In this document: one piece after another, positions 1-25,154 of the stretch | How positions within the stretch are numbered: the first letter of the stretch is position 1 | How the letters are laid out: each line of letters opens with the position of its first letter | Source of the DNA: Paraspadella gotoi | Taxonomy: Eukaryota; Animalia; Chaetognatha | DNA: 64,000 nucleotides | Assembly: GCA_051294375.1 (NCBI GenBank) | Contig: CM119264.1 | Coordinates: 24,096,002-24,160,001 of the forward strand | Direction: 5' to 3' | Program-made: the position numbers and the translations under genes | Notes under the pieces: model-generated | Database searches by the model: none | The model's input: only the letters and a program-made list of their open reading frames with translations | What the model was told of the DNA's origin: nothing

Positions 1-285
<285 letters not shown>

Positions 286-1006
286 TTATGTTCTTTAGAA
301 AATGTGAAATTCGGGTGTGCGAGTCATTAAACATGGACAACAAATCATAGTTATGTATGTACTTAAAAACAATCTACCATTCAAAAACGTTTGTAGATTT
401 TAACACTAAAAAAAATTTCTTAGCCAAAACTTACGTACACGTTTTATGTAGAAATATCATATCATTCGGTTCAATTTTTCTCTGACAGTGAGGCGGAAAA
501 GATGGAGTGGAATATTACACTTTTTAAATGGGTTTTTTTTCTTTCATTTTTAGTACCATTTAAAATAAATTTTATTTGAGAAGTAGTAATGACATTTATA
601 TCAGGGCTCTCTTTTGGCACCATTATTAATATAAATTACTTAAATTATTATAGCAAAGCCGAGCCATGAACTCCGACCTTCTTAATCAGAAATAAAGAGA
701 AATTTAGCTTCCGAAGTTTAAATTCATCCTTCTTCAATCATTACGAAGGCAAAACATAATTGAACAGTATGAAATTTATACAGAAAAAACGTGAATGTTT
801 TAGCCATTTAAAAATCTCTACGCGTTTTCGATTGGCAAATTCTTTTTAGCGGTGGGTTTTAAATTGTCACCATGTACATCGTACGCGCTAATAAATTAAA
901 GTGCGAGGACAAAATAAAATTCAAGAATTTTATATTTTTTGGCAAACGATTGATTTGAAAATGGGAATAACGATGAATTGCAAACAATGTCACATAACAT
1001 GATGGC

Positions 1007-2792
1007 TTAAGAGGCGTCGCCGTTGTCGCTGACTCCACCGCTGCCGCTAACTGCGTCACCAACGGGAAGTGAACTAGTGAGTCGCGCGAGTTGCTCATCA
1101 AAGGATCGCATTTGCTCTGCGGTGTCGCAAGATTCACTAGAAATCAAAATAAATTTTAACAAAGCAATACTATTGTCACTTGTGAAAACTAAAGTTTACG
1201 GTCAACTATCAGTCCATCCATTTCACCTTCCATCGCGCGGGTCGCCGATTCCGGTATGCAACTGATTCAAGGCGGCGGCAAGATTTGCCATCTCCCGCTG
1301 CAGCGTAGCGGCGGCGTCTCGCTGCGCGGCCTCCAACTCAAGCGCCTCTCGCCGCAGCTCGGCGAATTCCGTCTTGATCGTTTGGAGACTTTCCGCCATG
1401 CGAACGGGGTTAGGAGGCGTGCCGCTCTGGAAAATAAATCGTGTATATAGACTGACTGACTTTCCCTGTTTACCATTCAACCAAATCATCTTTCGTCATA
1501 AACCAACTCCGATCTCATGAAATTGGTATACGTGGCGTATCATAAATTCGTCTCCCGTATAGCTTAGTGAAACTCAGCATGTCCTTTTGGCTTGGACAGC
1601 TAAGCACTCGTTCACCCACCGTGAGTTCCGGGTTCAATCCCCTCAGGGTCACGATGGTAAAGTGTGATGGTGGCGGCATAAACACACCAGTGACACTGAG
1701 CGCCAGCTGTCGGGGAGATGCCTCACACCCCGGGCATCATACATGTCTCCCCGTTGTCATATATAGTCAATATAAAATCATCCATTCATTCACTAAATAT
1801 TAAATAAGCCACCTTGTCGTCCTTGCCCCTGGCTTTGGACATTAAGACCTCCATCCCGTTTACAAGATAGCAGGACCCTGCAAGCTTTTAATCAATCTAC
1901 TTTATTCACCCTTTGTCTTACCTATTAAGGAAATGATACAATGTTTTAAAAAAGTTTCAAATGTATAAAAAGACCACCCCCTTTAGTAGAGCCAAACTTC
2001 GTCAATGGGGTGGGTCAGAAGTTTGATTTGGGAACCTTTCCAAATGAAACTTCATACATTTCTGAGAAAACTTTCAATGGAGCAAAATTTTCTAAAATGG
2101 CAAGAAGCATTAGTAATTAATTTTTTAATATTTATTTATAGATAGGAAATGCCAAAAATTTTTTTTAGAATTTTTTATTTTTAAAAGCAGATTCAAATAG
2201 CTTATGAAAAGTTATCTACACAAAGTATAATTCTTTTTTCAATATTTTGATGATAAGTGGGTTAAAATTGAGAAAAACCTTAAAAAATCATCATCATCAT
2301 CATCATCATCCGATGATTTTAGCAGTTTTTACTAATTTTTAGTAATAAAACATCAAAATTTTAAAAAGTTGTAATTATATTTTTTGCTTAACTTTTTAAG
2401 CTCTATCAGAATCAATTAAAAAAACTTAAAATATCCAAAAAAAATTTTTAACATTATATAGCAATATAATAATATTAATTAGCGAATTACTCATGGTTCG
2501 GAACATTTTTGCAAAAAAATATTTTAACACAATAATTAATACCAATAATGAATTAGTTTAATGCTGTTCCCATTAAAATTTGAATTTGGTCGGCTACCGC
2601 TACCTTTAGTAGTCTTTTATTATTTAGCCGAAACTTTTCTCAGCTACGCTCATACAACGACCCTCGTCTTCTTTCCACCTTCTCGTCTTCGGTGATCCTC
2701 CCATATTCGTCGTCCAACTTTCTCAGGGCGAAGTTGAGATCCGATTCCGTCTTTTTAAACATGGCTTCCACCGTCGCGATCTTTGACTCCAT
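1007..2792 (-). CDS. SKA2: Spindle and kinetochore-associated protein 2 (SKA2)-like; exons ~2792-2679, ~1427-1228, 1136-1007
   Basis: MESKIATVEAMFKKTESDLNF...NPVRMAESLQTIKTEF matches the SKA2 pattern (LELMFQKAESDLDY...NPVTLLKELSVIK). GT-AG splice sites give an open frame ending ...DNGDAS*. Confidence 0.82.
1552..1760 (+). mobile_element. tRNA-derived SINE-like dispersed repeat (second, internally deleted copy at ~27233-27360)
   Basis: A-box-like TAGCTTAGTG and B-box-like GGTTCAATCCC. The segments gtatagctt..gtgaaactcagc..ggcttggacagctaa..ctcgttcacc and gcctcacacc..ggcatca.acatgtctcc recur at 27233-27360. Confidence 0.6.
1775..1895. repeat. Dispersed repeat family (core 'cttgcccctg.ctttggaca..cttaa'); further copies at ~32100-32210, ~32295-32515, ~40300-40365, ~43700-43880
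   Basis: The same motif occurs in both orientations at five intronic sites, e.g. ccttaaaccaccaaagcctgtccaaagtca.gggc.agatagctta and its reverse complement at 43760-43800. Confidence 0.7.
2130..2450. repeat. AT-rich dispersed repeat; inverted copy at ~15220-15600
   Basis: cagattca..aaaagttatctacacaaagtataattctttt and the (cat)n segment are reverse-complemented at 15385-15530 (aaaagaattatactttgtgtagacaacttttt..tgaatctg). Confidence 0.6.
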
Positions 2793-4325
2793 TATTCCAA
2801 TTTTCTTTATGTCTCTTGATGACCAACTACTTTTCAAGTCATTGGTAAAAGTCCGCAAACTTTCGCACAACTAAAATTACGACGGTTCCGCTGTCGATTT
2901 CTATGAAAGTTACAGGATTACTTGTTTTACAATATCTTTAAAGAAAATTTTTTTAAATATGAGAAAACATAGTTAAGATTTCATGAAAGTAATAATTTCT
3001 GATAAAGAAAAAACATTTATAACTTAGTACAATATATTTTAAGATTGTAATAATAACATATATTGTAATATAATTTACTTTTAGCATATTTGTGAATATT
3101 TTCGGGGTGAGGGAGGTTATATAGAGGTAGGAAGTCACTTATTGAAAATCAAAATATCTAAAAATCTAAAAAGAAAGGAGGTGGAAAGTACATTTGTTTT
3201 GGGATCAAAGTAAGATATGATAGTTGGCTGTCCTAAGCGAAAAAAAAAGACTACTAGGTAAAATCGTGTTAGCTATGTAATAACATTAATTTGGGTGCTG
3301 TAATAAATTATTTTTTAAAAATAAAAAAGACAGCAATTTCAATACGAAGTCAAATTCGAAAATGCAGAAGTTGAGATGATGTAATACCTCACAAGATAAA
3401 CAAAAGGAAATAGAAAAGGTAGACATTAGGTATTTAACATTTTATATTTAACTCCAACGATTTTCTCTCAAGTGCCGCGTGAATTGTTGTTACTGTCTCC
3501 ATAGGACCGTCTCCCACTTTATGTCCACGAGCGGCGTTTACCCACCAACGGGCGGCGACATCGATGTCCCTGACTCGCAGAAATAGCCTCCGATTGGTTG
3601 GTTCCAGATCGAGCGAGAGTGAGAGCGAGACGATTGAGACTTAAAGCGGGCGCAAAATTACAAAAGGTAGAAAAAAGCATTAGATGTAAAGTTGACAGTC
3701 GACAAGGGTAGTGCGCATGAAAAAAAGTATTGTTAAATCTTTTTTATTAAAACTTTTCCCATAGTTTAACCTGAAAAAAGGGCAAACTTTCAAAAATTCA
3801 TACATTAGCTTAGGAAGAAATTCAGAAATGAATAAAATTTCGAATCAAATTTTTCGATCGAAATCAAAAATTTTTTTCAAGTTTAATTAAACTTCTAGTA
3901 AAATATTTGGATACATATTACTACTAGGTTACGGTTTACTTCTTTCAAATCAAAATCGTAAGCTTCATGCGTCGGTTTATGAAATTGGTATAACCAATAT
4001 AATGGTAGAATAATTCGAAATATAAAAAAATATTGAATACTCAAAAATGCTTTCGTAGGCTAAGTAAAGTAAGTGAACAAAATTGCACTCGGATATTTTG
4101 AAAAAAGGTTGACAAAGACTAATAGTAATAAAGTTATAAACATCACAGAAGACAATCGCGAAGTCGCGTCGCGTCGGGGGGAAAAACGCAAAAAACAAAA
4201 CTACGTCCGAAAATCAAGTGGCTAACTGCGGTTTAGAAACTAGAGCTGAGTACGAATTAGAAACGATAAGAGAGAGGGAGAAATATAGCGATTTTATAGA
4301 TGAAGAGTAAGAACGAAAGAGCTAA

Positions 4326-7300
4326 TCAAAGTTTGAACGGCACGGATACCCGATAACACCCGTTATGCGTCCGGACAGCGTCGGAATCTGATCCCGTGGC
4401 AGACTCTGGGCGATTTCGCCGAAAGTAATGTGCTGTGCGAGATTCATCTTCAACGTCGGAGCATGTGGCCAACGCCGAATCTGGCCGTCGGTCTCGCATA
4501 GCGACGCTGATCGCTGGATTGACGGCAGGCTGGAGCTCGGCTAGGTAAAACTCAGTAGGGGAGACGGGGGTAAAATCTCCTGTTAACAGACGCGCTCTTC
4601 TGCCATCATCATGAGATGAACGTAATGCGGGAGACGGACCTTCCTCGTAGCACTCCTCCTCCGCGGCAAAGTCTTCGGCGACGACTCCGCTGTCGTCCGT
4701 CGACTTGGCGAGAATAGTCTTCACCTCTCTGACGTCATCTTCGTCGATTAGGACGACGTCGTTATCTCCGACCAGATCCACCTCTTGAACGCCGTCGTCC
4801 GGAGAAGCATCGACAACAAGGTCACTGCGGCGCTCTTCCCGCGCCAAGGCCATTCCGAGAGGCTCCACTACCTCGAAAGAGCCGGCCCCATCCCGCAGAA
4901 ACGCGAGCTGGCTTCGAGCGGTCGTCGCGCAGCTGTGGCTATGAACGGTTTCCCTCGCTTCGTTATCTTCCTCGTCTGTCTCCATCTCTATTTCGACGGT
5001 TTCTGCGATGACGTCATCCGAGACTCCGAAATTGTCTTTGAGGCAAATTAAAAATTTTTTTTAGATACTGTAAAGTAGTAACAGAAACTACAGTCGATTG
5101 TCTTTACCTTGCGAACGGAATTCGTGCGTGATGTCCGCGGTGACTGCTACGTTGGAAGAGCCGACGTCGGTGCCCGTTGCGGGGTCGGCTTCGCCCTGGC
5201 AAAAGATATCTTGGTCGCCGGGGAGGATGGGACTGCAAGAGGGAGACCGGAGACGGGGAGCCCGCCCACACATCTCCTCGGCCGCTATTCCTTCGTCGTT
5301 GTCACAACCTTCTCCTTTCAGGCTTCCACGATTGCAATGCGAATCCCCTTCGCCGTCCGAGATTTCGTCCGAATGGTACATCGAATCATCGTCCGAGCTA
5401 AAGAGGAGAGTGGGGGAATTAATTCAGAATCAAGTTGAACAGAGAAAATGATATCACAAAACCTTCCATAAGAAAAAACGACAGTCTCTCCCCACCCCAA
5501 CCATTTTCGCCTGTGTTGCGGGTTCGTGGCCCCGTGCGTTCCCTCGGGCGTTCCTTCCGGCGTCGAAGTGTCTGGCATCGAGCGTCGAACGAGACTCGTC
5601 TCCACTCGACGGTTCTTGTCGCGATCGTGAATTCGAAGCAATTCGCGATGACAGGCGATCAAATCCGTTTCGCTTGAGGAAAAATGGAATGATCACCAAA
5701 GCAGATGATGGAAGCCATTTGAAATAGAAAATTACCTGAAGTTCTTGATAGCTTGCAAAGATTGAGGAAACGCCGGTACCATGTCAAGGCAAGCCCGGGA
5801 GGCGGAGACGGTGGCTGCGGCGACGGTGGAGGGCGTGTAGTCGTGAAAATTGTGGAACTGGAGACACACGGACATGAAATAGCGGGCGTAGTTTCGCAGC
5901 GCGTCGAACTGGCGGCGCCAAGCGACCACAGAGCCATCGCCGTTTAAAATAACGGCGTCCTGATCACGCTCTGGACACCCCAGATTTACGTAGAAGTTGA
6001 TAAAGTGGGCGGGGGTAACGAGCCCCACCTCCCAATCGAAGAACTTGAGCAACATCAACTCCATCTGCAGGAAGTCGGCGGGAGCATAGGCACCGCCGCA
6101 GTACTCGCTTTGAGGACGTTGGCAGGGATAGGAGAAGTATTTTAATAGACAGAAGTCTATGATTTACACTTAATATCACGCTATACGAAAAATAATAAAA
6201 GGTAGTTTTTAGTTTATAAAATGAGTAAAACCAATACAAACAACAACAACACGCAACCTCGGTTGAAATTGACTTTATTAACCTTACCCCTGATTGCTTG
6301 CCCTCTCTTTATGGTCAACGTTGACCTTGTAAATAAATACCCATTGTTATAGACTTAGCATCTGAGCCTTTTGACTTATCGTTTTTAACCATATTGAAGA
6401 ATAAACCATTCTTAATCTGAAAATTGTTGAGTCCACACCAGGTTATTATAAAAATTAATCAAATCAGTCCGGTGTAGTATTTCGCAACTTAATTTGACAA
6501 TCTATAAATCGATCACCCCGAACAGTACAGTAAAAATTATACTATGCTAATAAAATTAAACTATATATACTTATATGAACTATTTACTAACTACTTAGAA
6601 CATAAAAACGAAAATGAGCATTAAAAATAATTTCGTTTCCGAACTTCACTGAGGTGAATGTATTTCGACAAAGCAGAAGTGAGAAACTACCTCAATATGA
6701 TCTGTTTGGGGATGTCCTCCTCTTTTTCTTCAAACTTGGTGGCGACCGAGAGACATCCCATTGCAAGCAGATTTAATTGACTCCTTGATACATCAAAATT
6801 GTCCATGAAGTGATCAAGGAGGTAGACCGAGAGGTGTAAGCTAAGAGTGAGGAAAGACAAATATTAAAAGCATAAGGATAGTCGCAATCGCATAAAAAAA
6901 AAAAATTTGACCCATACCAAACTTTCCTCCCCACACACAAAATTTTATTCCAATCCATCCATCTAATCACGAGTAATTTGAGTTTTTTGCCGGGACGGAC
7001 GGACAGACGGACTTTTTTTTTTTGCTTAATATATCATACTTTGATGTTCTGACATGATTTAAGTTAATGCCCGACAAAATTGAGGGGGCAGACCGAAGTA
7101 AATTATATAGTCGGAATCTGCGATAAACAGATCCGACTAAAAAGCAGTGAATAACTTAATAAAATTCTCAGCACCATCGCATAAGGACAATATATCATTG
7201 ACCTTTTATCCTCTCCCGTAATAGCTACCTGGTAAGTCCGAGTTTGTGTCTTTCTGCTATAGATGTTATCCAGTCTACAAGCTGGCGTCGGTAAGTGAGT

Positions 7301-8223
7301 TGAGGGGATCGGGCTAATGAACGAACAAAGGGAGAGGTCGACGTTTAAAAGTAACAAAACAATTTCAATGTGCCGCGTCGAAATGACTAATGTGTGCAGT
7401 ATGCACACTTTCTAGATAACGAGATTACTTAAGTGTGTAACATGTGCATAATGACTAATTTGATCATTTATTTATAAAGTGTTAACTAATTCGACCAAAT
7501 ATTAAACTATTAATGAAATCACGTGACCGCATTTCTACTTAGTGTTGTCACGACACGACACTGTCGTGACTAAACTGACAAATATAAAATTTAAAATTTT
7601 ATAGGGTGAAGTGAAAGTTTGGAATCAAAATTTAGCAGTTAAATATAGTAGCTCAGTAAGCTTATTTTGTATATAGTACTACCCTTATATAATATTAAAA
7701 TTTTAAAATATTTTTTTTAAATTCAGATTTTTTGCAAGGAATACAAATCCGATCATAAAATTTAAAAATTTGCATTTTTAAACTTTAGCTTATTGTATAC
7801 TTTTTACTATATATAAATATAGTTCACTGGTGCAGAGGAACGGGGCGCTTAACCCGCCTGTAACATGGTGTTACAGCCTGATCCGAAGCTCAGGACTGCT
7901 TGCTTATATTGAACGGTCCTGTGATTAACTCATAACAATAATTACTGTCTCTTAAATCTCGTCTAAGAATTTTTTGAAATTATGCTTAATAAAACGTAAA
8001 AAAAATTATTTTAGGCTCATGTGATCATATTTTTAGGAGATCCGGTGACTGAAAAAATCTGCACATTAGGCATATCATGATTCAATCTTCCATGCACGTA
8101 TACACTTACACTTATACATTTATCACCTTGATAATTCCTTTTCCCTTTGATCTCGCGTTGAACAAGACAGGTGTGAACATCGGCGGCGGCATCGCTGCAC
8201 CACCAATTGCTCACCAACTCCAT
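4326..8223 (-). CDS. CCNJ: Cyclin J-like protein with long acidic, disordered C-terminal extension; ~7 exons
   Basis: Exons encode [49 protein letters not shown]...[16 protein letters not shown] and [21 protein letters not shown], all cyclin J-type cyclin-box motifs. Acidic exons follow to the stop at 4326. Confidence 0.9.
7833..7918 (+). repeat. 3' body fragment of the SINE-like element at 29150-29312
   Basis: cgcttaacccgcctgtaaca..agcctgatccgaagctcagg.actgctt..tattgaacg is the reverse complement of 29150-29230. Confidence 0.7.
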
Positions 8224-9037
8224 CTGGTTTATGGAAACTTTCGATTTGTATAAATCTAATGATAATTTATATCAATTTTCGGGAATAGGGCAGAGTATTC
8301 GATCTAAGGTAAGAAAAGTCTAATTTGAAGAACGAACTATCGAACTCTCGTTTTTTTTCTACTGTGACTTAGTCGGCGGAAGATTTAAATTTACGAAAAT
8401 GAGAATGCTTACTCTAGTTTATATCATTTACTTAAAGATAATCATAAAAAACCTGAAATAACAAAAAAACATGCGGTCTATATTGCCAAAAAATGGTTGA
8501 AAATGAATAGAAACGATGAAAATCAAATAGGTGGTTACGCACTCGTCTCCACCGAAAAGGTAAAAAGAGAATTAGATAAATGTCACGGGGAGCGCAAAAA
8601 CGAAAACAAGCGAAAAATTTATTTGCAGAAATTTGTATAAGCCGTAAAATTCAAATCACAGAAAATGTAAAAGGACGTAGAAAATTTTTTATTGCCTCTG
8701 AATTGCTTTTTTTTAAGTCTAAAAAGTTTGATTAGCCAAAGGAAAAATTCTCTAAAAGTGCGACAGAAGACAGTTACCAAAATATTAACAAAGAACGAGT
8801 ATTTTTTCGAAAAGATTGTTTACTACGTATAAAGATTAAAGATTTTACTCTTTACAGTTCAACCAAATTGGTTGTATTGATTTTTGTCACATTCAACAGA
8901 AAAAAAAGTGATGCAAAAAATCGATTTTCATCAGGTTTTTCGTTTTCGATTTCTCGCGGGACCCCCAAATAGTGGCGATATAAAATATTTCTAAAAATTC
9001 TGGAAATCAAATAAGCTCTCGCCTCTCTAGTAACTTG

Positions 9038-12000
9038 TCACAGTATTAGGCATTTTCCGCTGAAGCAGTCATTGTCCCGGACGACCAATTCCTTGACGTC
9101 GGCGTCGCCGCCGTAGAGAGCGAAGAGGACACGGAAGGCCGCTTCCAACTCCAACTTCAGCTTCCAGTTTTTCGGTGGGAGGAGTCGTTTGACGCCGCTT
9201 AGATCGGAGAAGGCGTCGGCAGCTTCAGCGGTGTCTCCACTGGAGCCCTCGCCTTTTTCGCCATTGAATCCAAAGGTAACCAAAAACTTGACGCTGAAAT
9301 TCTCTCTAGGGGAAGATGAAAAAAAAATCAAGCGGCTTTAATATTGATATTTTTTACATTGAAGTCGAAATTCGCAACTAGTTTTCATATTTACGTACGT
9401 TGTACCAACAAAGTATATATAAAATTGTGATTATCATGGTTAATGGTTAGACAATATTTACCTTCTCTTGTTTTCATTGACAAGCTATTTTATCAGTTAA
9501 CGAATAATACCTGGCGAAAAGAGCCTTGACATTCTTTTCCTTCGTGTCGACGGGCTGATTCTTAAGTGCTGTTTGAATAACGAAGACAAGGGGGGCGGCG
9601 AATTCGGAAGTGACACCCTCTAGCGCCAAAAGTTGCTCGTCGGCCATCTCGTCCATCGCCTGAAAGAGGCTCCAGACTGCGCCGAAGGAGGGAGACTTGG
9701 CGACGGGAAATCGGACGAGGGACTCGTCGAACCGGAATTCGGCCAGGCGGAGCAAAATGCGCCAGCCGTTGTCGTCGGGCGACAATTGCAAGTGGTCCTA
9801 AAAAAGAAGAAAAATAAACATCAGGCAAAATTTTGCAATGTCCACCGTCTAATTGTACCTCTAAATCCTTGAGGTCGACTGTCTCGTCGTTGGCGCCACG
9901 TTGCAAAGCATAGTGGGCATGGCGCATGGTCGACAAAAGTTTTGGAATGCACGCAGGATGCGAGGATATCTGTCAAATAAACATTCTAATATATAACTGA
10001 TCAAAATATACATCTTGCTAAATAAATGAATATCGCATTTCATTTCCACCTGTAGCACGGCGTGATGGAAGTCCTTTTTCTCGGATCCCTCAAGAGCGAT
10101 GAGCGGACTAAAGAGTTCCGCTGGGGGCGTGTCGAGGCTCATCGAGGCTTTGGACTCTTCCTTCGAGTCCTCCAAAGAAACAAAGCGACCCTCCTCTCCG
10201 TCGAGAAGCACAAGTTTCACGCCACCGTCGGGATAGACCAACAGTTCACGTACAGAGTAAGCAATCGCAGTGCCTGAAAAACGGAGAATAATTTAGTATT
10301 TGTACATTGCCAAAATGTAATGATTTTTCTCTCCTTCTCTCTCTCTCTTTCACCATTTCAAATTTACTCAATCTCTCTCCTTCCCTGCCCTTACCTTCAC
10401 CTGCCCTCACATCTGACCCCTATCCTTCTCTCAAATCTTTGTTGGAAACTCTCTCTCTCTCACAAACTTAATGTTTGAAAGATTTGAAAGCTTATTGATA
10501 CAAATGCTGATGAAGACTCGAACTTTAATGAGTCGAAACATGTCCGATTTTAAAAACAAAATCATTCTTGATTAGTCATACATTGATACGATGATAGTCA
10601 TTCATTGATGCGATGAAGTAATTCATAGTAAATAAAAACAAACAAATGCGTGTATGAGTGAGAGAGAGAGAGGGAAAGAAAAAAAAAAATAAGAGAAGCT
10701 GGACAAACCGCTGCAGAGCGAACTCGTTTTTAGACGAATCAGACGAAGCTGCGACGGAAAAAAAGAGAGAGAGCGCGACATATAATTAAAATAGAGAGAA
10801 AAAGAAAAAACTGGACAGCCGCTGCAGAGCTGAACTGGTCTATATACATAAAAATGAGTGAAGTGTAGCGGTAGTATTTCATACCCCGCTACTCGTCCGA
10901 GAATCAGCAGCACCTATGGCGCCGGAGGTAGCAAGAGCTCCTCCCAACCCAAAGGACTCGGGTAACATAACGGGAAACAAAACAATTTTAAACAAAATTT
11001 TCTATATTAAATTAATGTTCTTTAGTACATGAACAACTATTCGAATTTTAATCTGCAACTTTCACTACGCCTTAATGATTACTACTTACAACGCACTTTC
11101 CCCATACCTTTCGGCAAGGTTATCTTATTTGTGGAAGCATCGTCAATGTTCCCCTCGGGATGAACGACGGGCGGGACGTCAACGGCCGCATTGCCGCCCG
11201 CCTCCTTGTGCGAGGAGAGTACGGCGTCCTTGGTGACGACGGCGGAGGCGAGGACGACGCATAGGCACTTGCGGCAATCCCGCCGAGTCTCCTCCACTAG
11301 GTCGTGACTAAGGTTAATGTGTCGAGCCTGAAGTATAAATCAACAGGTACATCAATAGGGAATTCTGGCAAAACGTCATCAATAATGACTGATTAAGGCC
11401 AGTTGTTATTATCAGACGTCCCTAGTAGGTCCCGGGATTGGTGACATCTTATACATTAAGTACGTACGTAACAGGTGGAGACCAATAGTTTAATATGATA
11501 ACAAAAGACAAAAAACTTTCATGGAATAACCTTGAGACGTACTTTATTACCTAAGCATAATCGAAAACCACTACTACACTCATATTCCCCTCAGCACCTG
11601 CAGGGCGTCGGATATGTCGTCCTCCTCGCTTTCCACCTTGTCCACTTTACCCAAATCCGCCTCAACCTCGACGAGGTCGTTGCCGGAGACTTCGACGTCC
11701 ACGAGCTCCTTGGCGATTTTGACTCCGAGTCGCCCCGAGGCCGAGAACTTGGAGCTTCGGGAATACGCCAGCAGCTCGTGGCTGGAAGTCTTCACACCGA
11801 GATCTTTTAACAAGAAAATAACGAATGAAAGTAGTCGGCGTGTCTGCATCATAAGTTGGTTAACAGGAAGTCATCACGACTTTTAAAGCTTTACAGACTC
11901 GGTATCGTGATGTTGAGGTACTTTTTGTGACAAGTATTAAGTTTGTAAGTCTGTTAAATTTTAACTGTAGAACTACAAATTCTCTCCCCTTCACTCACCT

Positions 12001-12197
12001 TTTTCAGGCTCGGCGAGTATCTCCTGCAAAGAAAAGCTGGTAGGCTGGTATTTGGGCGTCTGCCAGACCCAATAGGGTTTTTTCTTGACGACAACGTGAA
12101 GCGGAAGACAATTGTCGGCCGTATCGATGGAGGAAATGGGGAGGAGAGTCTCGCTGCCGATGGCTTTGACGAAAGATTCGGACGCCGCTTCGAACAT
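9038..12197 (-). CDS. Gasdermin (GSDME/pejvakin-type invertebrate gasdermin), ~504 aa; exons 12197-11999, 11803-11598, 11327-11108, 10273-10050, 9969-9859, 9797-9511, 9305-9038
   Basis: The N-terminus MFEAASESFVKAIG...LPLHVVVKKKPYWVWQTPKYQPTSFSLQEIL and ITLPKGTAIAYSVREL are typical of the gasdermin pore-forming domain. All six introns are GT-AG with compatible phases. The exons sum to 1515 nt with an uninterrupted frame. Confidence 0.92.
10501..10550 (+). ncRNA. Minimal type I hammerhead ribozyme motif (Penelope-like), possibly degenerate, in gasdermin intron 3 (antisense to the gene)
   Basis: CTGATGA-A-GACTC-loop-GAGTC-GAAA-CATGTC: both core boxes, a 5-bp stem II, palindromic ACATGT stem III and a GUC site. 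Stem I is imperfect. Confidence 0.6.
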
Positions 12198-14119
12198 TGT
12201 GCTGATTCACGTGAGCTTCGCACGGATGATTTGCGAAGGTGAGAAGAAGAATCGGCGCCAAAGAGATGACGAAAATATTTTTTCCCAGTCAGAATTCCCC
12301 TGTCGATTATAAATACGGTTTTTAAAACCAGCAGCTTTACCGAGTGGCATGAAACATTTTTGTTTACATTAGCGGTTCAAAATTTGAGGATTGTTCTCTT
12401 TAAACGGCCACCGTTCAGACGGGAAAAAAAGACCACGACGGAAATGCTCGATGCTGGGATCAACTTTGCTGGAGGAACTCACCGATTTAGATTACAGCTT
12501 AGGCTTGGCTTTGATCCTTTGAATGAAGCCCAAAAAGAATAAATTGAATAAGTTGAATCTTTTTAATGCAATCCATCGCGTGGCCTGCCGGACCTGGCGT
12601 GATTTCTTAAAGGAAGCACAGTCATAACATAACTTATGTCATAAGCACAGTCATAATGAATTACGGATTTCGCCCCAGACGCATTTTTAGCGGATGAATC
12701 ATAACATAAGCTTGTACAATTTGAGCTCAATTCCCGTTGCAGAGTGAAGGAGCTAAAATAAACAAAAGGGAATCGCCTCACAATTTACCAAAAGAAACAA
12801 AGATCTAATGTAATATTTATATTACTTATTAATAATAAGTAATATATATTTGTTAAAAACTTTTTTTTTGTAAAGGAAAAGAGAAAAACAATAAGAATAG
12901 AAAATTCGAATCATTGGCAGTTATTAAAAACTATCACCAATTCAATATTTGTAAACCAAAAATTTTATTAAATCAAATCGCTGACACCCCGTGACCCAAA
13001 TCCGATGATACAAAAGAAAAATTAATTATAAGTAAACTGTATGCCAATAATAAAAATTTATAATACCATTTAAAAAGTTCAAAACATTGCTTAAAAACGC
13101 TTTAAAACATTCTAAAAATACTATCGAAACCAGTAACAAAAAAAATTATTCTTCGACTTCATGGAGCAAAAAAACCTTGTCCAAAAGCAGCTCTAATTTT
13201 ATTACCATTACAAATGTTGAATGCTGATAACCACTTTGGTTTCTGCTGTCAAACCTTTCTAGTTATAAATTATCACAAGAAAAAAATCAGATTTTACAAT
13301 TTACAGGTTAGAACCTCACGATAGCTACGGAATATCCCCCCTTCTCAAGCTGATCTTTCGGTAAAAATTTTGGTAACAAACTTTTATGCAGCCGATGCTG
13401 TGATGCACTGGTCCCTAACAAGCTTAAACCACCATTTTTTCAAATTGTCTTGCCCTAAGCCATTCTTGTTTTTTCAGTTTTTCAAGGGAGGGCAAACTAA
13501 TTATAGGCAGTGAATACCCATCTTCGTCTTGCCAATAATCAACTTATCACAGAAAAGCAGTCTTGGAAATTGCTTAGTCAGCCAGCTAGAATTGTTTGAA
13601 TAAAGGCTGGAGTATCATTCTCCCAGGCACCATAAGGTTTATGGACTTAGTAATGGGCAAAAAAGCCCCAATATATCTGTACCAGGGTCATAAAAACTTA
13701 ATACAAAATTGTACTTGATTTTTAACAAATACGATTCGCCGACAATTTGGCGATTTTAGCATTTTCATGAGAAAATAGATTTAAAGTTGTTAATGATAAT
13801 GGATTTAAACAAAATTTATACATAAAAAACGTCAAAGAGTTATTTATCATTTAAAAAAATATGAGTATATCAACTCAGTAAAGTATGGCAATAGTTTTTT
13901 TTGTATCATTTTCTGCTGTCCACCATATTGAAGATCCTTATTTCCCCCTGGGTCCTGGTAGGGTTTCTTCAATAGAGCCAAAATAGGATACTTGCCCCCC
14001 AAAATCATAATTAGTTGTCCTAACATACTTTAGTAGCTTTTAAAGCCTCGATCAAAGTACCTTTTAGTTTTTATAATCTTTAAATAATGTGTTTTATCTT
14101 TCTTTTCGTTGTGTTTGGT

Positions 14120-14238: not shown

Positions 14239-16438
14239 TTTAAATAGAAAAACAACTCGCTTTCAGTGATCAAATTTCGTACTACAGGTCATATTTGCAA
14301 GTACTCTGGTGTTCTTAAAGTAAAAGTCAAAACGACTTTAAATGCCATTGACAATGGTAAATGAAAAGAAATACTTCTTGATCCACCCTTTTGTTCCTCT
14401 TGAGTTGAGGCCTTCGTCACAAAGTCGACAGACGCCGCCCAAACTCGGCCAAACAAAGATCCAGAAAAAGTCAAATTTTCGAGATCCAAACCAGTAACAT
14501 TATTTCAGTTTTTCCATTTTTAATCTTACTCGATTACTCGGCGCTGTTGTAAACTAATCGAGAAACCTTTCTCAAGACTTTAATGACTTCAAACTTTTAC
14601 GACTCTTTATTTCGTAATAAATATAGATTTCTATTTTTAAACACACAATTAATTAAGAAGCGTAATAAATTTCTTTACAAGTTTCTTATTATCCCGTGCC
14701 AGCTGCGTGCTTTGCTCTCGAGGCACATTTGATGCCACGCGGCGATCACGTGAAGAGTCTAGGATTTCGTTCGATTCCATTTAGTCTGAGAAAAGCGAAC
14801 ACGTGAACGGGTCGTGGTCCACGGAGCTCTCTCTCTGTCACAACACCTGATTCGTCGGGAATAAAACTCGAAAACATTTCCTCAAAAGACGAAATTTGCT
14901 CAAACGCGTTGGCGTTTAAAATCTGCTGTGTGTCTATTATCTCATAAAATAAATTTTCTTGTCTCTATACAACAAACTTACGATTGCACTACCCTTTGAT
15001 TCGCAAGAATATTTAAATTGTTGTCTTACTTCTCTTTCATTAAAAAAAACAACAAAACGCCAAAACGCCAAATCGTCATAGCCGCTAAAATTTAAATGCT
15101 AATGTATACAGTGTTAAAATAATCTATCATGAGCATAGATTATGACATTTTTTTGTCAAAAATGCTTTCTTCTGAAGGTACTATCATATCTAAAATTATT
15201 ATCTGACAATATAGAGAAAAAATTTTGAAATCTTAAAATTTTTTGACGGATTCTGATAGAGCAAAAAAAATTTAACAAGAAATAATAATAAAAATAATTA
15301 AATAAATAAATTAGTAAATTAAATAAATAAATACAGCTTTTAAAAATTCTTACATTTTCTTAATGAAAATATTAAAATCATCAAACGGTGATGATGATGA
15401 TAATTATTTTTAGATTTTCTTATTTTTGACTTATCAGATTAGCAAAGTTTTTCGAATTTTACCTATCATAAAAATATTTAAAAAGAATTATACTTTGTGT
15501 AGACAACTTTTTATGACATATGTGAATCTGGTCTTAAAATTTAAAAATTCTCAATTTTTTTGGCCTTTCCTATCTATAAATATATATTAAAAAAATAATT
15601 ACAAGGGTATAGACCCATGTACTCGCTGTAAATTTTTGACTCGCCCAATTGAGTATAAACCAACAGTTTTTTTCGTTAGAAGTCAACTAAATTTTTTTCT
15701 TAAGGTAAAAAAATCGTTTTGAGAAAAACAAACCAAAAACATTTTCAGTGCACCTGTCCTCGTTATCTTAATAAATATTTGCCTAATGCCTACTTAGTTT
15801 CAGCTTTCAATCATGATTGCTTTTCATTTTTTTACAGTCTGTGAGAATTAAATTTAATGTCAAATCGTTCGCTAAATTGTGAATCTAAAATGTTTGCGAT
15901 TTTTTGATATTTTTGTTATTTTATATCAGTTAAATAAATTAAATAAATAAATTAGTTAAATTAATAATAGTTTTCAACCGAAATCGGTGTTAAATAGCCT
16001 ATGGATGATGCCGGGCTTCACTTGTAGAAAAGATAGCTTTTACTTGATCTTTTTACTGAGTATCGCTATTTTCCTTATTTGCTTAAAAGCATTTTTTTAT
16101 AAATTCGTTAACCGCCAGTTAAATGATTGAATAAGATTTGGATGCATCGAATAACTCACAAACTGAGTCTATGCGCTTCGCCTCACCTGATTCACCCCTC
16201 AATGAATAGCTCGTTAGAAGCGGCGTTACGCGTTCTCGCACTCGAAATTTGGAAGTCAAGAGAAAATTAAACTCGAAAGAAATCTCCAAACCCAATCGAC
16301 AGGTCACCACAACGACCATCGGGAGGATCCCTTACTTATATAACTCCCTGAAACGCGCTTCAAGATCAGTAAAGGTCACAAAAACAATTTTTCGCATGTT
16401 GTATATCGCGTTACATTTATGCCCTCTTTCGCCTTCAG

Positions 16439-18922
16439 ATGTCGCAAATACGCCGACGATTGGGTTCTATGTCCCTGACGAAGATGGAATCGTTTGACCA
16501 GACCGCCACCCAATACACTCCCCTGCCCGGAGTTCCAGATCGCGGCGCTCGTATCAGGGTGAGTGGATGGTTTTATCTCCGGGTCATCCTGATCCAAGTA
16601 AATGTGTCTTTACGCCACGCCAGGTGATGTACGCCGGCGCCTGCTATCGCACTCGATACCTAAACAATCGCTCGGACTTTCGTGTGCATGCCCCGGGTTA
16701 CGAGATCTCCGGCGTCATCGACGAACTTGGGTCAGAGGTCGATCCTGTTACTTGTCGCCTCCAGGTCAACGATCGAGTGGTCATCTATCCCTTCGAGAAG
16801 GAAGGAAACTCTGCCTTGGCGGATTCGGGGTAAAACCATATTTTTGAAGGACGAATAAGTTTTTTTTACATTAAGTGGATAAAAGATAAAAATTCTACTC
16901 GCTTATCACAGATATCCGGAATTCATTGCTATCCCTGACTTGCATTGCGTGGTCAAAATTCCTGATGATCTGGACATGGAGGTGGCCGCCATGTTGCCCT
17001 GTGGCGGCCTGCGCGCATTCAATGCCGTTTGCCGTGCGCGACAGCACATTGACCTCAAGCTGCGCACCAACGGTTCTTGTACCCTCGTCATCGTCAGCGC
17101 CGGCGGTCTGGGGCTCTGGGCTCTACGGTGCACGCAGTTCTTTTATGGAAATGAAAAGAATCTCAAGTGAGTCGTCGAAGATGTCATTAAAAAATTGAAT
17201 TTTATCCTGTTGGCGACCATAATTCTTTTGGCACCATTACTGTGTAATAAGCAGGATCGACGAGCGAATTAGTCATCGTATACTTTCCTATACTTTTCGA
17301 GCCAAGTGATTTGAACACACGTTCAAAACCCACAAATGTCGCTGTTTCCAGTATCGTCATGACGGACAACAAATCTGAGAAGTTGTTTCACGCTTTGGAC
17401 GAAGGGGCGGACGACGTGATTCACTGGGCCGAGTCGGAGCACGAAGGTTACCTCTACGAACGAACGCGCGACGTTTGTCAAGAAGGCGTGGATGTTGCCA
17501 TCGACTTCGTCAGGTTCGCTTGGACGCTTTCATTTTTAAGTTAGAACAATAACCTTCATTTGTTCGCGATGTTTTGAACCTTTTACATTCACTCTTTCAG
17601 CTCACCGAGGACCCTGAAGAGACTCCTGAGCGTTTTAAATTTCGAGGGTTTGTGTGTCGTCGCGGGAAACTCCGGACACGAGGCTTACGTGTCATTACAG
17701 GTGCTAACGTGGTGGGGTGTGGTGCGCCGAGTTATTTGGGGATAAATAATTAAGGAATTAAAATCTAAAAACCATTATTATTATACCATACAGACTTTGG
17801 CGATCAACGAGCAGTCGTTGGTGGGTACTCAAAGAGGAACGATCGAAATGTTGCAGCAACTAGTCGGTCTTGTCGCTGAGAAAAAGGTGTATTTTTATGA
17901 CTTTAGCTCTCAGCATGACTGTGGCGCTTAATTACCATCTTAGAAAATGAATAAGTCGCCAAAAACATGCCGAACCTTTGATCCCTTCGACTCCTTTAGT
18001 ATTGAAATCGCGGGAAAAAAATATATCTGTAAAATTTTACTTTTTATGATTCGAATGAGTTATAGTTCGGTAAAATGCGATTAAAAACACTGGTGCGTGA
18101 GGATGTCAACGAAAATCTGGCTTTCTCAATTTTTATGATAATTTCACGAAAATAATCATTTGTCGCATTATAATAATATTTTTTGGATAATGGATATATT
18201 ACTATACCTAATATAACTTTCGGGGGTTTTTTGGTATGCGCATCATTTGATTTTAATATTAATCTACATTATATCAATAAACATTTACTTACACAGAAAA
18301 AAAATAATTTTAACGTTATTTTAGTGCGAAGCACTTTTCTTTTATTCATCACTAGATGGCAACAGCCGGGTTGCCTGTGATTCCCATTGGGATGGGGCAT
18401 CTCACTGTTGGTCTTGGGGGCTTTCGACCCTCAGTGACGCCTCCTGTCACTGGCGCGGTTAGTAACCGCGCCGCGGTTACCCTAGGATCGTCTCGCTTTG
18501 CCAACGCAGAGGGAAGTCGTTAGGATTGTGAAGGTGATGGTGCGTTCCCCCTCAATGGGTCAATGGGATCGGCTGAACGATGGTGGACAACTCTAGTATT
18601 TCTAATCATATTACGCTCAAAATAGGTTCATTAAAAATAAAATCAGAAAAAGCTTATTTTCATATATATATATACATTATTTTTTAGATTTTTAAATTAA
18701 AAACTTCAAAAGTTACCGAAAGTTGGCGACTTATTCATTTTCTAAGATGGTATATTTAAAATAATAATAGATTATAATTTGCTTTTCGTTTTCGTTCTAT
18801 TATAGATTCATCCGCCTGCTTATCAGATTTATCCCGTGTCTGAAGCTGATAAAGCGTTCAAAGAGGTCTCTCTTGCGAAAGTCAAAGGACGGGCTATACT
18901 GAAGGTGAACCAGAAAGATTAA
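16439..18922 (+). CDS. Medium-chain dehydrogenase/reductase (zinc alcohol dehydrogenase fold), divergent; ~7 exons
   Basis: Spliced exons give VMYAGACY, PGYEISGVIDELGSEV, LQVNDRVVIYP, AAMLPCGGLRAFNAV, SAGGLGLWAL, GVDVAIDFV and KVKGRAILKV, the MDR GroES-like plus Rossmann motifs. Confidence 0.85.
18358..18590. repeat. GC-rich structured dispersed repeat; second copy at ~30451-30670
   Basis: gcaacag.cgggttgcctgtg, gaccctcagtgac..gtcactggcgcggtta, ccctagga..gtctcgctttgccaacgca.agggaagtcgttagga and gatggtgcgt occur in the same order at both sites. Confidence 0.75.
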
Positions 18923-19801
18923 ATTTTGGAAGCCGAGGTAATGTTTAATTTTTGATTTTTTTAAAGGTTTGTTTGCCTGAAATGGAGGAATCAGAGCAAT
19001 AATACTACTCCGCAAAAATATTCCTACGGTCAATTCTCAGTATTATTTCTCTTTTGTTTAATTCTACCATTTTTGTGATTGGTTCATAATATACCTATTT
19101 TTCTCTACCCCACCCTTTTTGTGCTATTTTATGAAAAGCTCAATCAAGTTTTGGTCCAAAAAGTTTTTTTTTTCATCTGCTTATGTTTTTTTTTTTAGAT
19201 TCTGACCCGATCAACGTTTTGCGTAGACCTAGTCTTATTGTTTCGTATCGAGGTGTTAAAATGAAAATCCTTTTGTCCTGTTTTTGTTACTTAATGCTTA
19301 TTTAGTTATTACAATATAAGATGGAAAAACGAAATTAGTTTTGTCCCGTGACAATTTACGAATCTAATATCTAGACCAATAACTTAATAAAACCTGTGCT
19401 ACGGTTAGATGGCTATATTTTATTTTTCGAGAGGTGCATTTAACGTATGAGTCTATGCTGATAAATTCGAAATAAACTGAGTAATTTAAATAATTCTCAA
19501 GAGTTATTTTTTCCTTCGTTACCAGCACTTTTAGTCAGTCGACACTTCAAGATAGCAAAAGGTAAAAAGGCTACTCTTTTCTATTGCGCACTTTGACAGC
19601 GAATTTTCTGTGTGAATCACTAAATAGAAATTAAGATCAATCTTATTTTCCTATTAATGTACGTAAAATTACGAGTTCAAGAAAAGGGGGAATTTTTTTT
19701 TTTTTTAGTTTATTTGCAGTCCAAAGTTAGCTTGCCACAACAGGAGAAAAAAACAGGCGCAAATGAAAACTTAAAAAAAAAGTTATTCAAACAAAAAAAC
19801 A

Positions 19802-20673
19802 TCAAGAAATTTCAATCATAGATCGAACTCTGGGCCGTTGCTTCCGTTTCTTCTTTCCCTTGTACGGGTTGTATGGTTCGCTAGTTTTCGAATCGCTCAA
19901 ACCCGAGTCTTCGGAGCAGCACACCGCCGCGCCTACCGTCTCCGGAGCCGAGTCTTGCCGGGATGCCGTCGGCCTTGACTCAGGAAATCTGTCCGTCACC
20001 TCCCCTTTGTCCGCCTCCTCCAATAGGTCGCCCCACGCGGCGTTCGGAGGAGCGAGGGAGGTTGGGTGAGTAACGACACCTCCCTTGTAGGTCTCCACGT
20101 CGTCGCTGATCCCGTCGTCGGTTAAGGTGTAGCCCTTATCGGTCATTTCGGCGTCTACTGTGTCGATCAAGTCGGTGTCTCCCTCGTCCGTCCTCTCCGC
20201 GCTTCGTAAATCCTCCACCTCGCTCTCAACCAATGGGCTTTCGTTTTGCTCCGCCTCTGCCGGAGACTTAGGCTCGTTGCTCGGTAAAAAGGAAATCGAA
20301 TCTTCGACCCTCTTTTCTTTGTCTGCGACACCAGTTTCCGCAGACGACTCCGGGGAGCTCCTGCGCCTCTGGACTATCGATCGCAAACGGCGCTCCAAGT
20401 CGAGTCCCAAGCTCTTGTAACTCTCCTTGACTGCTCGGAACCGCTGGCTCTGGTCGGCGCTGTGGTTCTGGATGGCATCTAGGCGCGCCTCCATGCGGTC
20501 CGAGGTCACGCCCATCCGCTGCATCTCCTCCATGCTCATGAAGATGTCGCGCTCGAACTCTTCGAACATTTTGTCGTAGTTGGTCTTAACTGCCTTGTAG
20601 TCGTCGTCTCGTTGGGCTCTGAAATGTGGAGATGGATGAATTGTTTGACCCATTGACCCAAGTAAAGGTTTGT

Positions 20674-20757
<84 letters not shown>

Positions 20758-23700: not shown

Positions 23701-24728
23701 TGTTTAACGAGCGTCTTCTCGTCGTCGCCGAGCCGATAACCGCACTGTTCGCAGGGCATGAAGCCCGCTGACCCTCCGGGCTGGACCAGGCCCTCGCACT
23801 CCGGGCAGCGGCCGAGAAAGCTGAGGTCGTCCTCGTTGCACCATTGACAGTCGCAGTCGAAGAGGTACTTCTTCTTCAGTTTCTCTTTTCGCTTCTTCGT
23901 CGACGCGAGCTGGAGAAGATCGACGACGGAGTAGGTCGTCCGGATGCGACTTAAGTTCTTTTTGGGTCCTAAGTCCAGGAAGGACTTAGGGATGGGCTCG
24001 AGGGCCCGTATGTGGGCAGAGGTGCCGTGGAAGCTGGTGACGGCGTTGGGCTTGCAGGAGTGGTCGAGGCGGGAGGCGTCGAGGTAGATGGCGGTGCCGA
24101 TGTCCGAGGATCCCAAGTCGTCGGTGACGCCATAAGAGTTGACGGCGATGCGACCGAAGACGTGGAGGAAGAAGGCGTCGTCGTACTTGACGAGGACGAG
24201 AGGATCCGGTACGCGGAGGAAATACTTGAGCGCCTCCGTGATGATGTTGAGACGCTGCATCCGCTCCGGCTGTTGACGCATCTCCTCCACGTGGGGCTCG
24301 AGGTCGTCAAAGCAGCGCTTGTAGACGGCCGACTTGACGCTGACGTTCTCGCCCCGGGCGTCGCGGTCCACGATCCTCGCCATAAGACGCACCATGGCGT
24401 TGGCGAGCTTCTCGCGGAGATTTTCGGGCAAAGAGAGGATTCGCTTGCATTCAGTCTTGTGGAAGGGCCAGTCACCCTTCTGGCAATCCTTGGAGCAATA
24501 ATGGACGAACTTGCACTTGGCGCAAGCGCCCAGCGGACCGACGAGTGATTTTTCCGGACAGCGGAAGCAAAAGTCGCAGCGCTTCCCGCGCTCCTCGTCG
24601 TTGATCACGGCCACGTAGGCGCTGTCTTCGAAGATGATGTCGCCCGGTTGGAACATCTCTGGGGGCTGCGTCGCGGCGGCGGCGGAAGCGGCGCGGGCGC
24701 CATCGCCCGCTGCGGGAAGAACGCTCAT
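19802..24728 (-). CDS. SET and MYND domain protein (SMYD3-like lysine methyltransferase) with >1000-aa low-complexity/charged tail; exons 24728-20820 and 20618-19802, with an apparent +1 frameshift near 20870
   Basis: MYND finger (CDFC...CAKC...YCSKDCQKGDWPFHKTEC), SET motif DHSCKPNA, post-SET YLFDCDCQWC, a helical TPR-like region, then K/E/S/T-rich sequence. A GT-AG intron contains the (GA)n tract. Confidence 0.88.
20677..20795. repeat. (GA/TC)n microsatellite, representative of many tracts (e.g. 25160, 25390, 26040, 26220, 29704, 33530, 40850, 42655, 42940, 44140, 47670, 50835, 51540, 56800)
   Basis: Directly visible dinucleotide runs of 40-140 bp. They generate the spurious RERERE/SLSLSL ORFs. 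Confidence 0.97.
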
Positions 24729-25154
24729 CCCTTGTTGAAGGAGAAAAAAGTTAAAGATCAGTTTCAGCGGTTAATACAGTTTTTCGTAAAATTATTTCGC
24801 GTTTGTGGAACAAAATATTTTTTTTAAAACACCTTTTCCATTCTTCGGTAGAGGAAGTAGGTTAATCTGATTAGAGTAATGTGTTCATCCAGGATTTAAG
24901 TATACCCTTTAATTGTGATAAATTCATAATTTCCGAAGAAAAGAGTTCAAAATCAAAATACTACTTATATCATTCTACTAGGATATTATCACTGAACTTT
25001 ATTCAGTTAAAATGTCATCTGAACGACGTTTTTCATTGAGAGGAGTATTTTTTTAAAAAAAATGAGAATTAGAGAAATGATAAAATTTGAGGTTTTCCTC
25101 GTTTTCGACGAAGCGGTAGAAGTGGTCAACGATGAGCGATTTCATTTCAATTCT

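Follow-up and report, generated by a model that had tools for sequence, protein, structure and literature searches.

A conserved and recurrent CaaX lipid-anchor signal at the C-terminus of an arrow worm gasdermin

Can a gasdermin carry the C-terminal lipid-anchor signal of a Ras-like protein? This question is raised by a gene in a 64,000-nucleotide stretch of the genome of the arrow worm Paraspadella gotoi (assembly GCA_051294375.1, contig CM119264.1, positions 24,096,002 to 24,160,001 of the forward strand), which is referred to here as the window and in whose coordinates all positions are given. An earlier note, made from the letters of this stretch, had described an intact gasdermin of ~504 residues ending in DCFSGKCLIL and had read its last four residues as a geranylgeranylation signal. 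In CaaX proteins with X = Leu, GGTase-I adds a geranylgeranyl group to the Cys at position -4, the last three residues are trimmed and the Cys is methylated. Resting gasdermins, by comparison, are described as soluble and cytosolic, with S-palmitate as their known lipid (PMC12547243; for this source and for PMC8357416, PMC8888934, PMC10940682, PMC11127782, PMC11152559, PMC11304957, PMC13534543 and the supplement of PMC9355259, the statements given here cover the available part of the text). We found that the lipid-anchor signal on the P. gotoi gasdermin is real, conserved and recurrent, and of a type that we did not find described for this family.

The gasdermin gene occupies positions 12197-9038 on the minus strand. 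Its model consists of seven GT-AG coding exons (1515 nucleotides, 504 residues) with no internal stops, and a single gasdermin copy was found in the window by tblastn. The minus-strand frame at 9304-9038 terminates with DCFSGKCLIL followed by the TGA stop codon at 9040-9038. Cys501 (codon 9052-9050) is preceded by Lys500, and Cys496 (codon 9067-9065) lies five residues upstream of Cys501. The features of the locus are, in the direction of transcription:

12198..12681, minus strand: 5' untranslated region with a 183-nucleotide intron at 12299-12481 (RNA joint 12298-12482); upstream end approximate
11999..12197, minus strand: coding exon 1, with the start codon, helix alpha1 and the basic/aromatic beta1-beta2 segment of the pore domain; Pfam PF04598 at E 2.8e-13; joint skipping 195 nucleotides
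11598..11803, minus strand: coding exon 2, pore domain; joints skipping 195 and 270 nucleotides; tblastn 77-86% to relatives
11108..11327, minus strand: coding exon 3, pore domain; joints skipping 270 and 834 nucleotides
10050..10273, minus strand: coding exon 4, with the end of the pore domain, a short interdomain linker and the start of the inhibitory domain; gene model and RNA joints
about 10181-10128, minus strand: interdomain linker (about residues 240-257) in exon 4, with no DxxD motif
9859..9969, minus strand: coding exon 5, inhibitory domain; gene model and RNA joints
9511..9797, minus strand: coding exon 6, inhibitory domain; gene model and RNA joints
9038..9305, minus strand: last coding exon (7), with the final inhibitory-domain helix, the tail extension and the stop codon in one exon; RNA contigs
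9041..9109, minus strand: tail extension of 23 residues (482-504) past the usual gasdermin end; net charge -2, no polybasic patch
9065..9067, minus strand: Cys496, candidate S-acylation (second signal) site; Cys in all four members of the clade described below
9041..9052, minus strand: CaaX box CLIL (Cys501-Leu504), predicted GGTase-I substrate from sequence and published motif data
8472..9037, minus strand: 3' untranslated region as far as the RNA contig extends (566 nucleotides)

The gene model was compared with the contigs of public run X1, a single run of a single study that may itself be the source of the window; its kind was guessed as RNA, and it holds 0.57 of the words of the stretch. 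Two other runs, X2 and X3, placed no contigs on the stretch, which does not prove absence. All six modelled introns (205, 61, 80, 834, 270, and 195 nucleotides) were skipped exactly by contig joints. A 1680-nucleotide contig extends from exon 3 through the stop codon to position 8472; it covers 8472-9305 letter for letter and continues via exons 6, 5, 4, and 3. The interior bin of intron 6 had zero contig cover. These results were repeated at higher stringency. The X1 contigs use the modelled last exon, and no other last exon appeared among the joints listed (15 of 17 and 15 of 29), which leaves a minor alternative last exon possible. The main transcript thus encodes a protein ending in CLIL, with the Cys of this motif four residues from the true C-terminus, as the earlier note had it. 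As a side observation, one low-depth contig (4.5) retained intron 2, and the intron 3 region at 10338-11100 holds repeated sequence matched by many contigs, with a summed depth of up to about 9,000.

The encoded protein is an intact, expressed two-domain gasdermin of the GSDME/pejvakin type. In its relatives, the Pfam profile PF04598 matched with E values between 4e-33 and 8e-32 over 238 of the 240 profile positions. When the exons were searched one by one, exon 1 matched the same profile at 2.8e-13 and exon 3 weakly at 0.024, with no Pfam gasdermin match for the other five of the seven exons. The PDB sequence matches ranged from E 1e-17 to 1e-27 (human GSDME 9vlz, 9h5m, and 9pe0; Trichoplax 8jyv), the best being GSDME pore domains at about 1e-26, and the top Atlas match was the gasdermin-E cluster (score 0.97). 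Comparison with close relatives showed that the pore domain is complete and is the best-conserved part of the protein.

The second domain was assessed on a structure model of the relative P0004, built from 39 sequences, with a predicted local distance difference test (pLDDT) score of 80 and a predicted template modeling score of 0.78. This model has a two-domain layout, with a low-confidence linker (248-256), and its final helix, at residues 458-475, is followed by a short additional helix at 479-485. The last 10 residues (489-498) are of low confidence, with pLDDT below 50, and are predicted to be flexible. The best Foldseek matches of the model were full-length GSDMD and GSDMA3 (E 2e-16 and 7e-15), followed by GSDME and Trichoplax pores; isolated GSDMD-C chains matched as well (6kmv_D, template modeling score 0.68 by target, E 5e-4). 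The Pfam profile Gasdermin_C matched none of the six full-length proteins at E 0.05. On the fold of P0004, a helical C-terminal inhibitory domain is predicted to be present, and it is of full size, unlike that of pejvakin. Its final helix corresponds to alpha12 of gasdermins according to the alignment and Foldseek, and it aligns with the final helix of named invertebrate gasdermins. Known invertebrate proteins of the GSDME/pejvakin type include GSDMin (PMC9355259), Hydra HyGSDME (PMC10361584), and amphioxus BbGSDME (PMC10155998). The CaaX motif lies beyond the final helix, on a tail predicted to be exposed and flexible.

Close relatives of the protein retain the tail. A search with exon 1 (sources JGI, ENA, and Logan) returned five proteins at 82-88% identity. 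The three full-length relatives P0003, P0004, and P0006, which are 67.5-71.5% identical to the window model, end in ECCNSKCAIL, DCCKGKCVIL, and DCCKTKCSIL, respectively, so the Cys at -4 is kept in all three. Across the four proteins of this clade, Leu at -1, Ile at -2, Cys at -4, Lys at -5, and Cys at -9 are invariant. Position -3 differs in all four (Leu, Ala, Val, and Ser), and -6 and -7 also vary. The conserved positions are those that a prenyltransferase reads, and a variable -3 beside an invariant Ile-Leu matches the reliance of GGTase-I on the last two motif positions (PMC11304957). The tails of the clade are acidic (net charge -2 to -4) and have no polybasic patch, and the upstream Cys is present in all four; in the three relatives a second Cys stands next to it, and the clade has two or three Cys within the last nine residues. 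It is generally the second signal that fixes a CaaX protein at the Golgi, endosome, or plasma membrane. Because the tail is acidic, the candidate for this signal is the upstream Cys, and anchoring by a prenyl plus an acyl group is the route used by H-Ras and N-Ras (PMC10940682).

P0005 and P0007, the other two of the five, are without the C-terminal region, as is P0008, and all three are uninformative on the tail. P0005 leaves homology exactly at the position of intron 1 in the window, as though genomic DNA carrying this intron had been translated. An alignment-based search recovered only the same four relatives, no homologue was found with the last exon alone as query, and a metagenome scan with the full alignment gave no match. 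One metagenome locus (L001) was matched by the last-exon alignment, but it lies in DNA of 67% GC that contains no further gasdermin exon, and it was discarded as a chance hit.

Published motif data indicate how such a C-terminus would be treated. All 8,000 CXXX motifs have been screened for yeast GGTase-I, with depletion of the canonically modified motifs, and 137 motifs with a score below 0.2 at 37°C share the consensus Cx[V/I/L][L/F/I/M/V] (PMC11304957). The 37°C scores are 0.014 for CLIL, 0 for CVIL, 0.066 for CAIL, 0.014 for CSIL, 0.024 for CNIL, and 0 for CCIL, compared with 0.010 for CVLL of Rho1 and 0.985 for the control CASQ; the yeast proteins Cdc42 and Rho5 end in CAIL and CVIL (PMC11304957). 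Six of the seven gasdermin motifs considered in this study fall in the 137-member class read as canonically geranylgeranylated, and the residues of the GGTase-I consensus (Val, Ile, or Leu at a2 and Leu, Phe, Ile, Met, or Val at X) are Ile and Leu in all four clade members. A CVIL reporter was 98.6% modified by human GGTase-I (PMC11152559), and CaaX proteins with X = Leu are geranylgeranylated and directed to the cytosolic face of membranes (PMC8357416). Judged from its sequence, the window gasdermin is very probably prenylated, and the lipid is likely, although not certainly, geranylgeranyl.

To see how far CaaX ends extend among gasdermins, the exhaustive exon 1 search was used, which gave 152 proteins (150 listed). 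A Cys at -4 was present in 7 of the 44 proteins of at least 400 residues: P0003, P0004, P0006, P0017 (CCIL), P0018 (CNIL), P0156 (CCLF), and P0056. The last of these, which ends in CLAC, is a repetitive partial match and was dropped as a CaaX gasdermin; like P0023, another such match, it was excluded from the trees and from the full-length count. Ends of the form C-x-[VIL]-[LF], a pattern chosen after the tails had been inspected, occurred in 4 of 37 full-length-like representatives, whereas 0.10 were expected from the last 100 residues of the same proteins (P 3e-6). Excluding the window clade left 3 of 36 (P 1e-4); when P0017 and P0018 were also taken as one, 2 of 35 remained (P 0.004). For the same three sets, a broader pattern gave P values of 1e-4, 0.002, and 0.025, and a bare Cys at -4 gave 0.027, 0.099, and 0.29. 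None of the 112 shorter sequences had the strict pattern.

The tails are also set apart by their length. In a hand-chosen panel of 24 gasdermins, seven had tails of at least 9 residues (9-23), and all seven ended in CaaX; the 17 without the motif all stop 0-7 residues after the final helix. The 22-23-residue CaaX tail of the window clade is found in none of the 14 named invertebrate gasdermins in the tree set. Because the final helix and the tail share one exon, the tail would most simply have arisen by extension of the reading frame. P0017 and P0018 are lophotrochozoan-type proteins with 41% mutual identity and acidic tails of 15-17 residues; P0018 has a single tail Cys, with neither an upstream Cys nor a polybasic patch. 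P0156 is a divergent gasdermin of cnidarian type with a 9-residue tail, and its CCLF end is present in all five members of its cluster (P0156 and P0158-P0161). Querying the Atlas with the P0017 C-domain produced no usable match. CCIL, CCLF, and CNIL had no matches in the supplement of PMC9355259, where the alignments, as far as examined, end before the C-termini.

In the main tree (27 rows, LG+G4, tail columns removed), the window clade had support of 100/100 and was sister to named lophotrochozoan gasdermins (91/95, not starred). P0017 and P0018 were placed among Lingula, Owenia, nemertean, and mollusc proteins, and P0156 grouped with Montipora and Nematostella on a long branch (100/99). The CaaX character required three changes on this tree. 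A single clade of all seven CaaX proteins was rejected (approximately unbiased test, P 0.001), and a clade joining the window clade with P0017 and P0018 was not (P 0.10). A quick mixture-model tree of 48 rows again required three changes and left the window clade unplaced among invertebrates. Because one clade of all CaaX gasdermins was rejected, the tail has had at least two origins, or a single old origin followed by many losses. A sponge origin, considered at first, was abandoned in view of the main tree. The sister position of the clade, taken with the operon-like gene layout described below, would agree with an early-branching spiralian such as an arrow worm, at somewhat less than even odds. 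Arrow worms have been listed among the phyla without GSDME (PMC11508797); the same list names Nemertea, which is contradicted by the nemertean gasdermins found here.

How does this tail compare with known lipidated proteins? Gasdermins are S-palmitoylated on Cys191 in GSDMD and on Cys45/168/180 and the C-domain Cys407/408 in GSDME, and bacterial gasdermins are also modified (PMC13534543, PMC12547243). The window gasdermin would share with them a Cys-linked lipid and, with GSDME, lipidation on the C-domain. However, S-palmitoyl groups are reversible thioesters on internal Cys, mostly of the pore domain, and are tied to activation, whereas the CaaX box is a signal for an irreversible thioether at the end of the inhibitory domain, which established CaaX biology would place right after synthesis. 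In our full-text search on gasdermin lipidation, which took in few subscription journals, no natural prenylated gasdermin appeared among the papers listed; supplements may hold such sequences uncommented. Neither "prenyl" nor "CaaX" is mentioned in the amphioxus (PMC10155998) and Hydra (PMC10361584) papers, and "prenyl" is not mentioned in PMC12547243 and PMC11508797. In PMC11127782, caspase-3 and TEV protease carry the CAAX tails, and not a gasdermin.

Parallels also lie outside the family. GBP1, GBP2, and GBP5 are prenylated immune effectors. OAS1 p46 ends in CTIL and is geranylgeranylated, and OAS1 exists with and without this tail (PMC8357416). As in these proteins, an immune effector would here have gained a CaaX tail with X = Leu for placement on endomembranes. 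The folds are unrelated, however, and in the window gasdermin the domain removed by cleavage would be the one bearing the lipid; moreover, the OAS1 tail results from a splice-acceptor shift, whereas the gasdermin tail is an extension inside the last exon. In having a CaaX box, an upstream Cys, and no polybasic patch, the tail resembles those of H-Ras, N-Ras, and K-Ras4A (PMC10940682). This resemblance is of the signal only, and homology to small GTPases is not claimed.

The reading that we favor, at a probability of roughly 0.55, is that a lipid on the inhibitory domain anchors a self-inhibited gasdermin to a membrane, and that linker cleavage releases the pore domain at the membrane where the protein is held. 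GGTase-I would attach geranylgeranyl to Cys501, after which the last three residues would be removed and the Cys methylated. The upstream Cys would act as the second signal and fix the protein at the Golgi, endosome, or plasma membrane, so that the full-length, inhibited protein would sit on the membrane, tethered by its C-domain. Linker cleavage would then free the pore domain at the same membrane, with the lipid staying on the inhibitory domain. The benefit could be a choice of target membrane together with closeness to a membrane-bound activating protease.

The linker bears on the identity of this protease. The DxxD motif, the site of caspase-3, is typical of the GSDME/pejvakin-type subfamily but is not a requirement of the family as a whole. 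It is missing from the linkers of the window protein, P0003, and P0006 and occurs once in that of P0004, whereas it is present in 15 of the 20 other members of the panel, among them the CaaX-bearing P0017, P0018, and P0156. Two other linker Asp (at 245 and in the 256-257 region) are kept in all four clade members. Because DxxD is missing in three of the four, the activating protease of the clade is probably not a standard caspase-3. On a broader and tentative reading, to which we give somewhat less than even odds, soluble gasdermins became doubly lipidated membrane proteins of the Ras style independently in several invertebrate lineages, through extension of the last exon; the inhibitory domain would then decide which membrane, of an organelle or of the cell surface, is perforated, and in the window clade the anchor would be paired with a shift from caspase-3 to a local, membrane-bound trigger.

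Several points weigh against tethering as described. The evidence consists of sequence, transcript, and model, and the lipid, localization, cleavage, and pore are all predicted. The structure model was made for P0004 and not for the window protein. The close relatives number only three and are related to one another, and their tails are not conserved above the level of the protein (invariant positions: 11 of the last 24, compared with 299 of 504 overall). The yeast read-out is indirect, as depletion on a reporter protein is read as full modification, and CCLF, with a score of 0.50, falls outside the canonical class (PMC11304957). The lipid type is not certain because the CVIL reporter was also 100% modified by human farnesyltransferase (PMC11152559). 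Finally, Golgi placement of an OAS1 variant required more than a CaaX box (PMC8357416).

Other explanations were weighed on the same evidence. That the tail is not prenylated at all, its Cys serving for S-acylation only, for a disulfide, or for metal binding, or the motif being a neutral leftover of stop-codon loss, could be argued from the two or three Cys that clade members have among their final nine residues, from the weak enrichment of a bare Cys at -4, and from the fact that the case for prenylation is built on sequence and motif data and not on direct lipid evidence. We consider this very unlikely in view of the invariant Ile-Leu after the Cys with a free position between them, the exact -4 spacing in three lineages, the single Cys of P0018, the lack of the strict pattern in shorter sequences, and the yeast screen scores. 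If the tail is prenylated, the same motif evidence would also suit a lipid that brakes, with the anchor keeping the full-length protein from its activator or the membrane-held, cut inhibitory domain recapturing the pore domain. The position of the lipid on the inhibitory half and the scarcity of DxxD in the window clade speak for a brake, but P0017, P0018, and P0156 combine CaaX ends with intact DxxD sites, and the synthetic circuit with CAAX tails on a protease and a caspase-3 executioner, rather than on gasdermin, killed more (PMC11127782); we regard braking as unlikely.

A non-lytic role on an organelle (secretion, or organelle turnover as reported for pejvakin), with the prenylated protein being rarely or never cut, would agree with a short, well-conserved linker that has no standard caspase-3 site, with the pejvakin-like names given by NCBI to several invertebrate relatives, and with the neighborhood of the gene, where genes for cell-cycle and housekeeping functions lie head-to-tail with it and have a comparable contig depth. 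Such depth reflects expression poorly, however, and a complete, best-conserved pore domain that finds GSDME pores in the PDB, together with a full-size inhibitory domain, unlike that of pejvakin, makes such a role quite unlikely. The earlier note had gone on to suggest a guard or decoy sensitive to isoprenoid depletion or to bacterial proteases that clip prenylated tails. On this reading the lipid would be part of the lock, and the pore would be set off when prenylation fails or the tail is removed. The tail does resemble that of Ras and Rho proteins and directly follows the last helix, which in solved gasdermins helps to cover the membrane-binding elements, and a lipid helps to keep bacterial gasdermins inhibited (PMC12547243). 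However, the tail lies past the last helix, outside the folded inhibitory domain, so a clipped protein should come free intact and with its inhibition in place. Most relatives stay inhibited although they have no such tail, so its loss should leave the lock shut. No sequence feature indicates a lipid pocket, although no dedicated pocket test was made, and mammals sense such clipping indirectly, via Rho inactivation and pyrin (PMC8888934). This extension found no support and is highly improbable. What stands of the proposed interpretation, on RNA, conservation, recurrence, and published motif data, is a geranylgeranyl-type CaaX box with an upstream second-signal Cys on the inhibitory domain.

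The choice of the target membrane by gasdermins and their fast arrival there have so far been explained by lipid binding of the pore domain and by S-palmitoylation. Tethering via the inhibitory domain, if true, would be a different solution that breaks the rule of soluble resting gasdermins, and it would link lytic death directly to isoprenoid supply. The recurrence of the tail in distant lineages suggests a useful rather than an accidental design. Invertebrate relatives offer natural pairs with and without the tail, and Cys501 gives a one-residue test.

The gasdermin gene is the first of an operon-like run of four head-to-tail genes on the minus strand (64-12700), in which it is accompanied by a cyclin (Pfam Cyclin_N and Cyclin_C), a SKA2-like gene (PF16740, below the cut-off), and RPB8. 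The cyclin, downstream of gasdermin, is presumably cyclin J-like. Contig depths in this run were 336, 336/330, and 328, depth being a weak measure of expression. In the RNA contigs, gasdermin sequence ends at 8472, and that of the cyclin begins at 8454. Because the 19 nucleotides between these adjoining contigs hold a pyrimidine tract and a splice acceptor with no donor seen, trans-splicing of the gasdermin-cyclin gene run is suggested; no spliced-leader sequence was present in the contig loose ends shown.

Elsewhere in the window, a gene on the plus strand at 16210-18964 consists of multiple exons, with eight or more GT-AG introns spliced out in X1, and looks like a zinc alcohol dehydrogenase. 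A 1394-codon open frame on the minus strand at 20586-24770 starts with a MYND-finger/SET-like part, followed by a long low-complexity charged region, and is presumably SMYD-like. Two similar plus-strand exons at 28568-28864 and 34028-34354, which we assume to belong to a leucine-rich-repeat/F-box-like gene, suggest a tandem duplicate. Exons at 52477-54140 (minus strand) are presumably tektin-like, and a gene at 55952-58660 (plus strand) has what we take to be several EGF-like repeats. The window also holds two transfer RNA (tRNA) genes:

29238-29311, minus strand: tRNA-Trp(CCA)
37122-37195, plus strand: tRNA-Thr(TGT)

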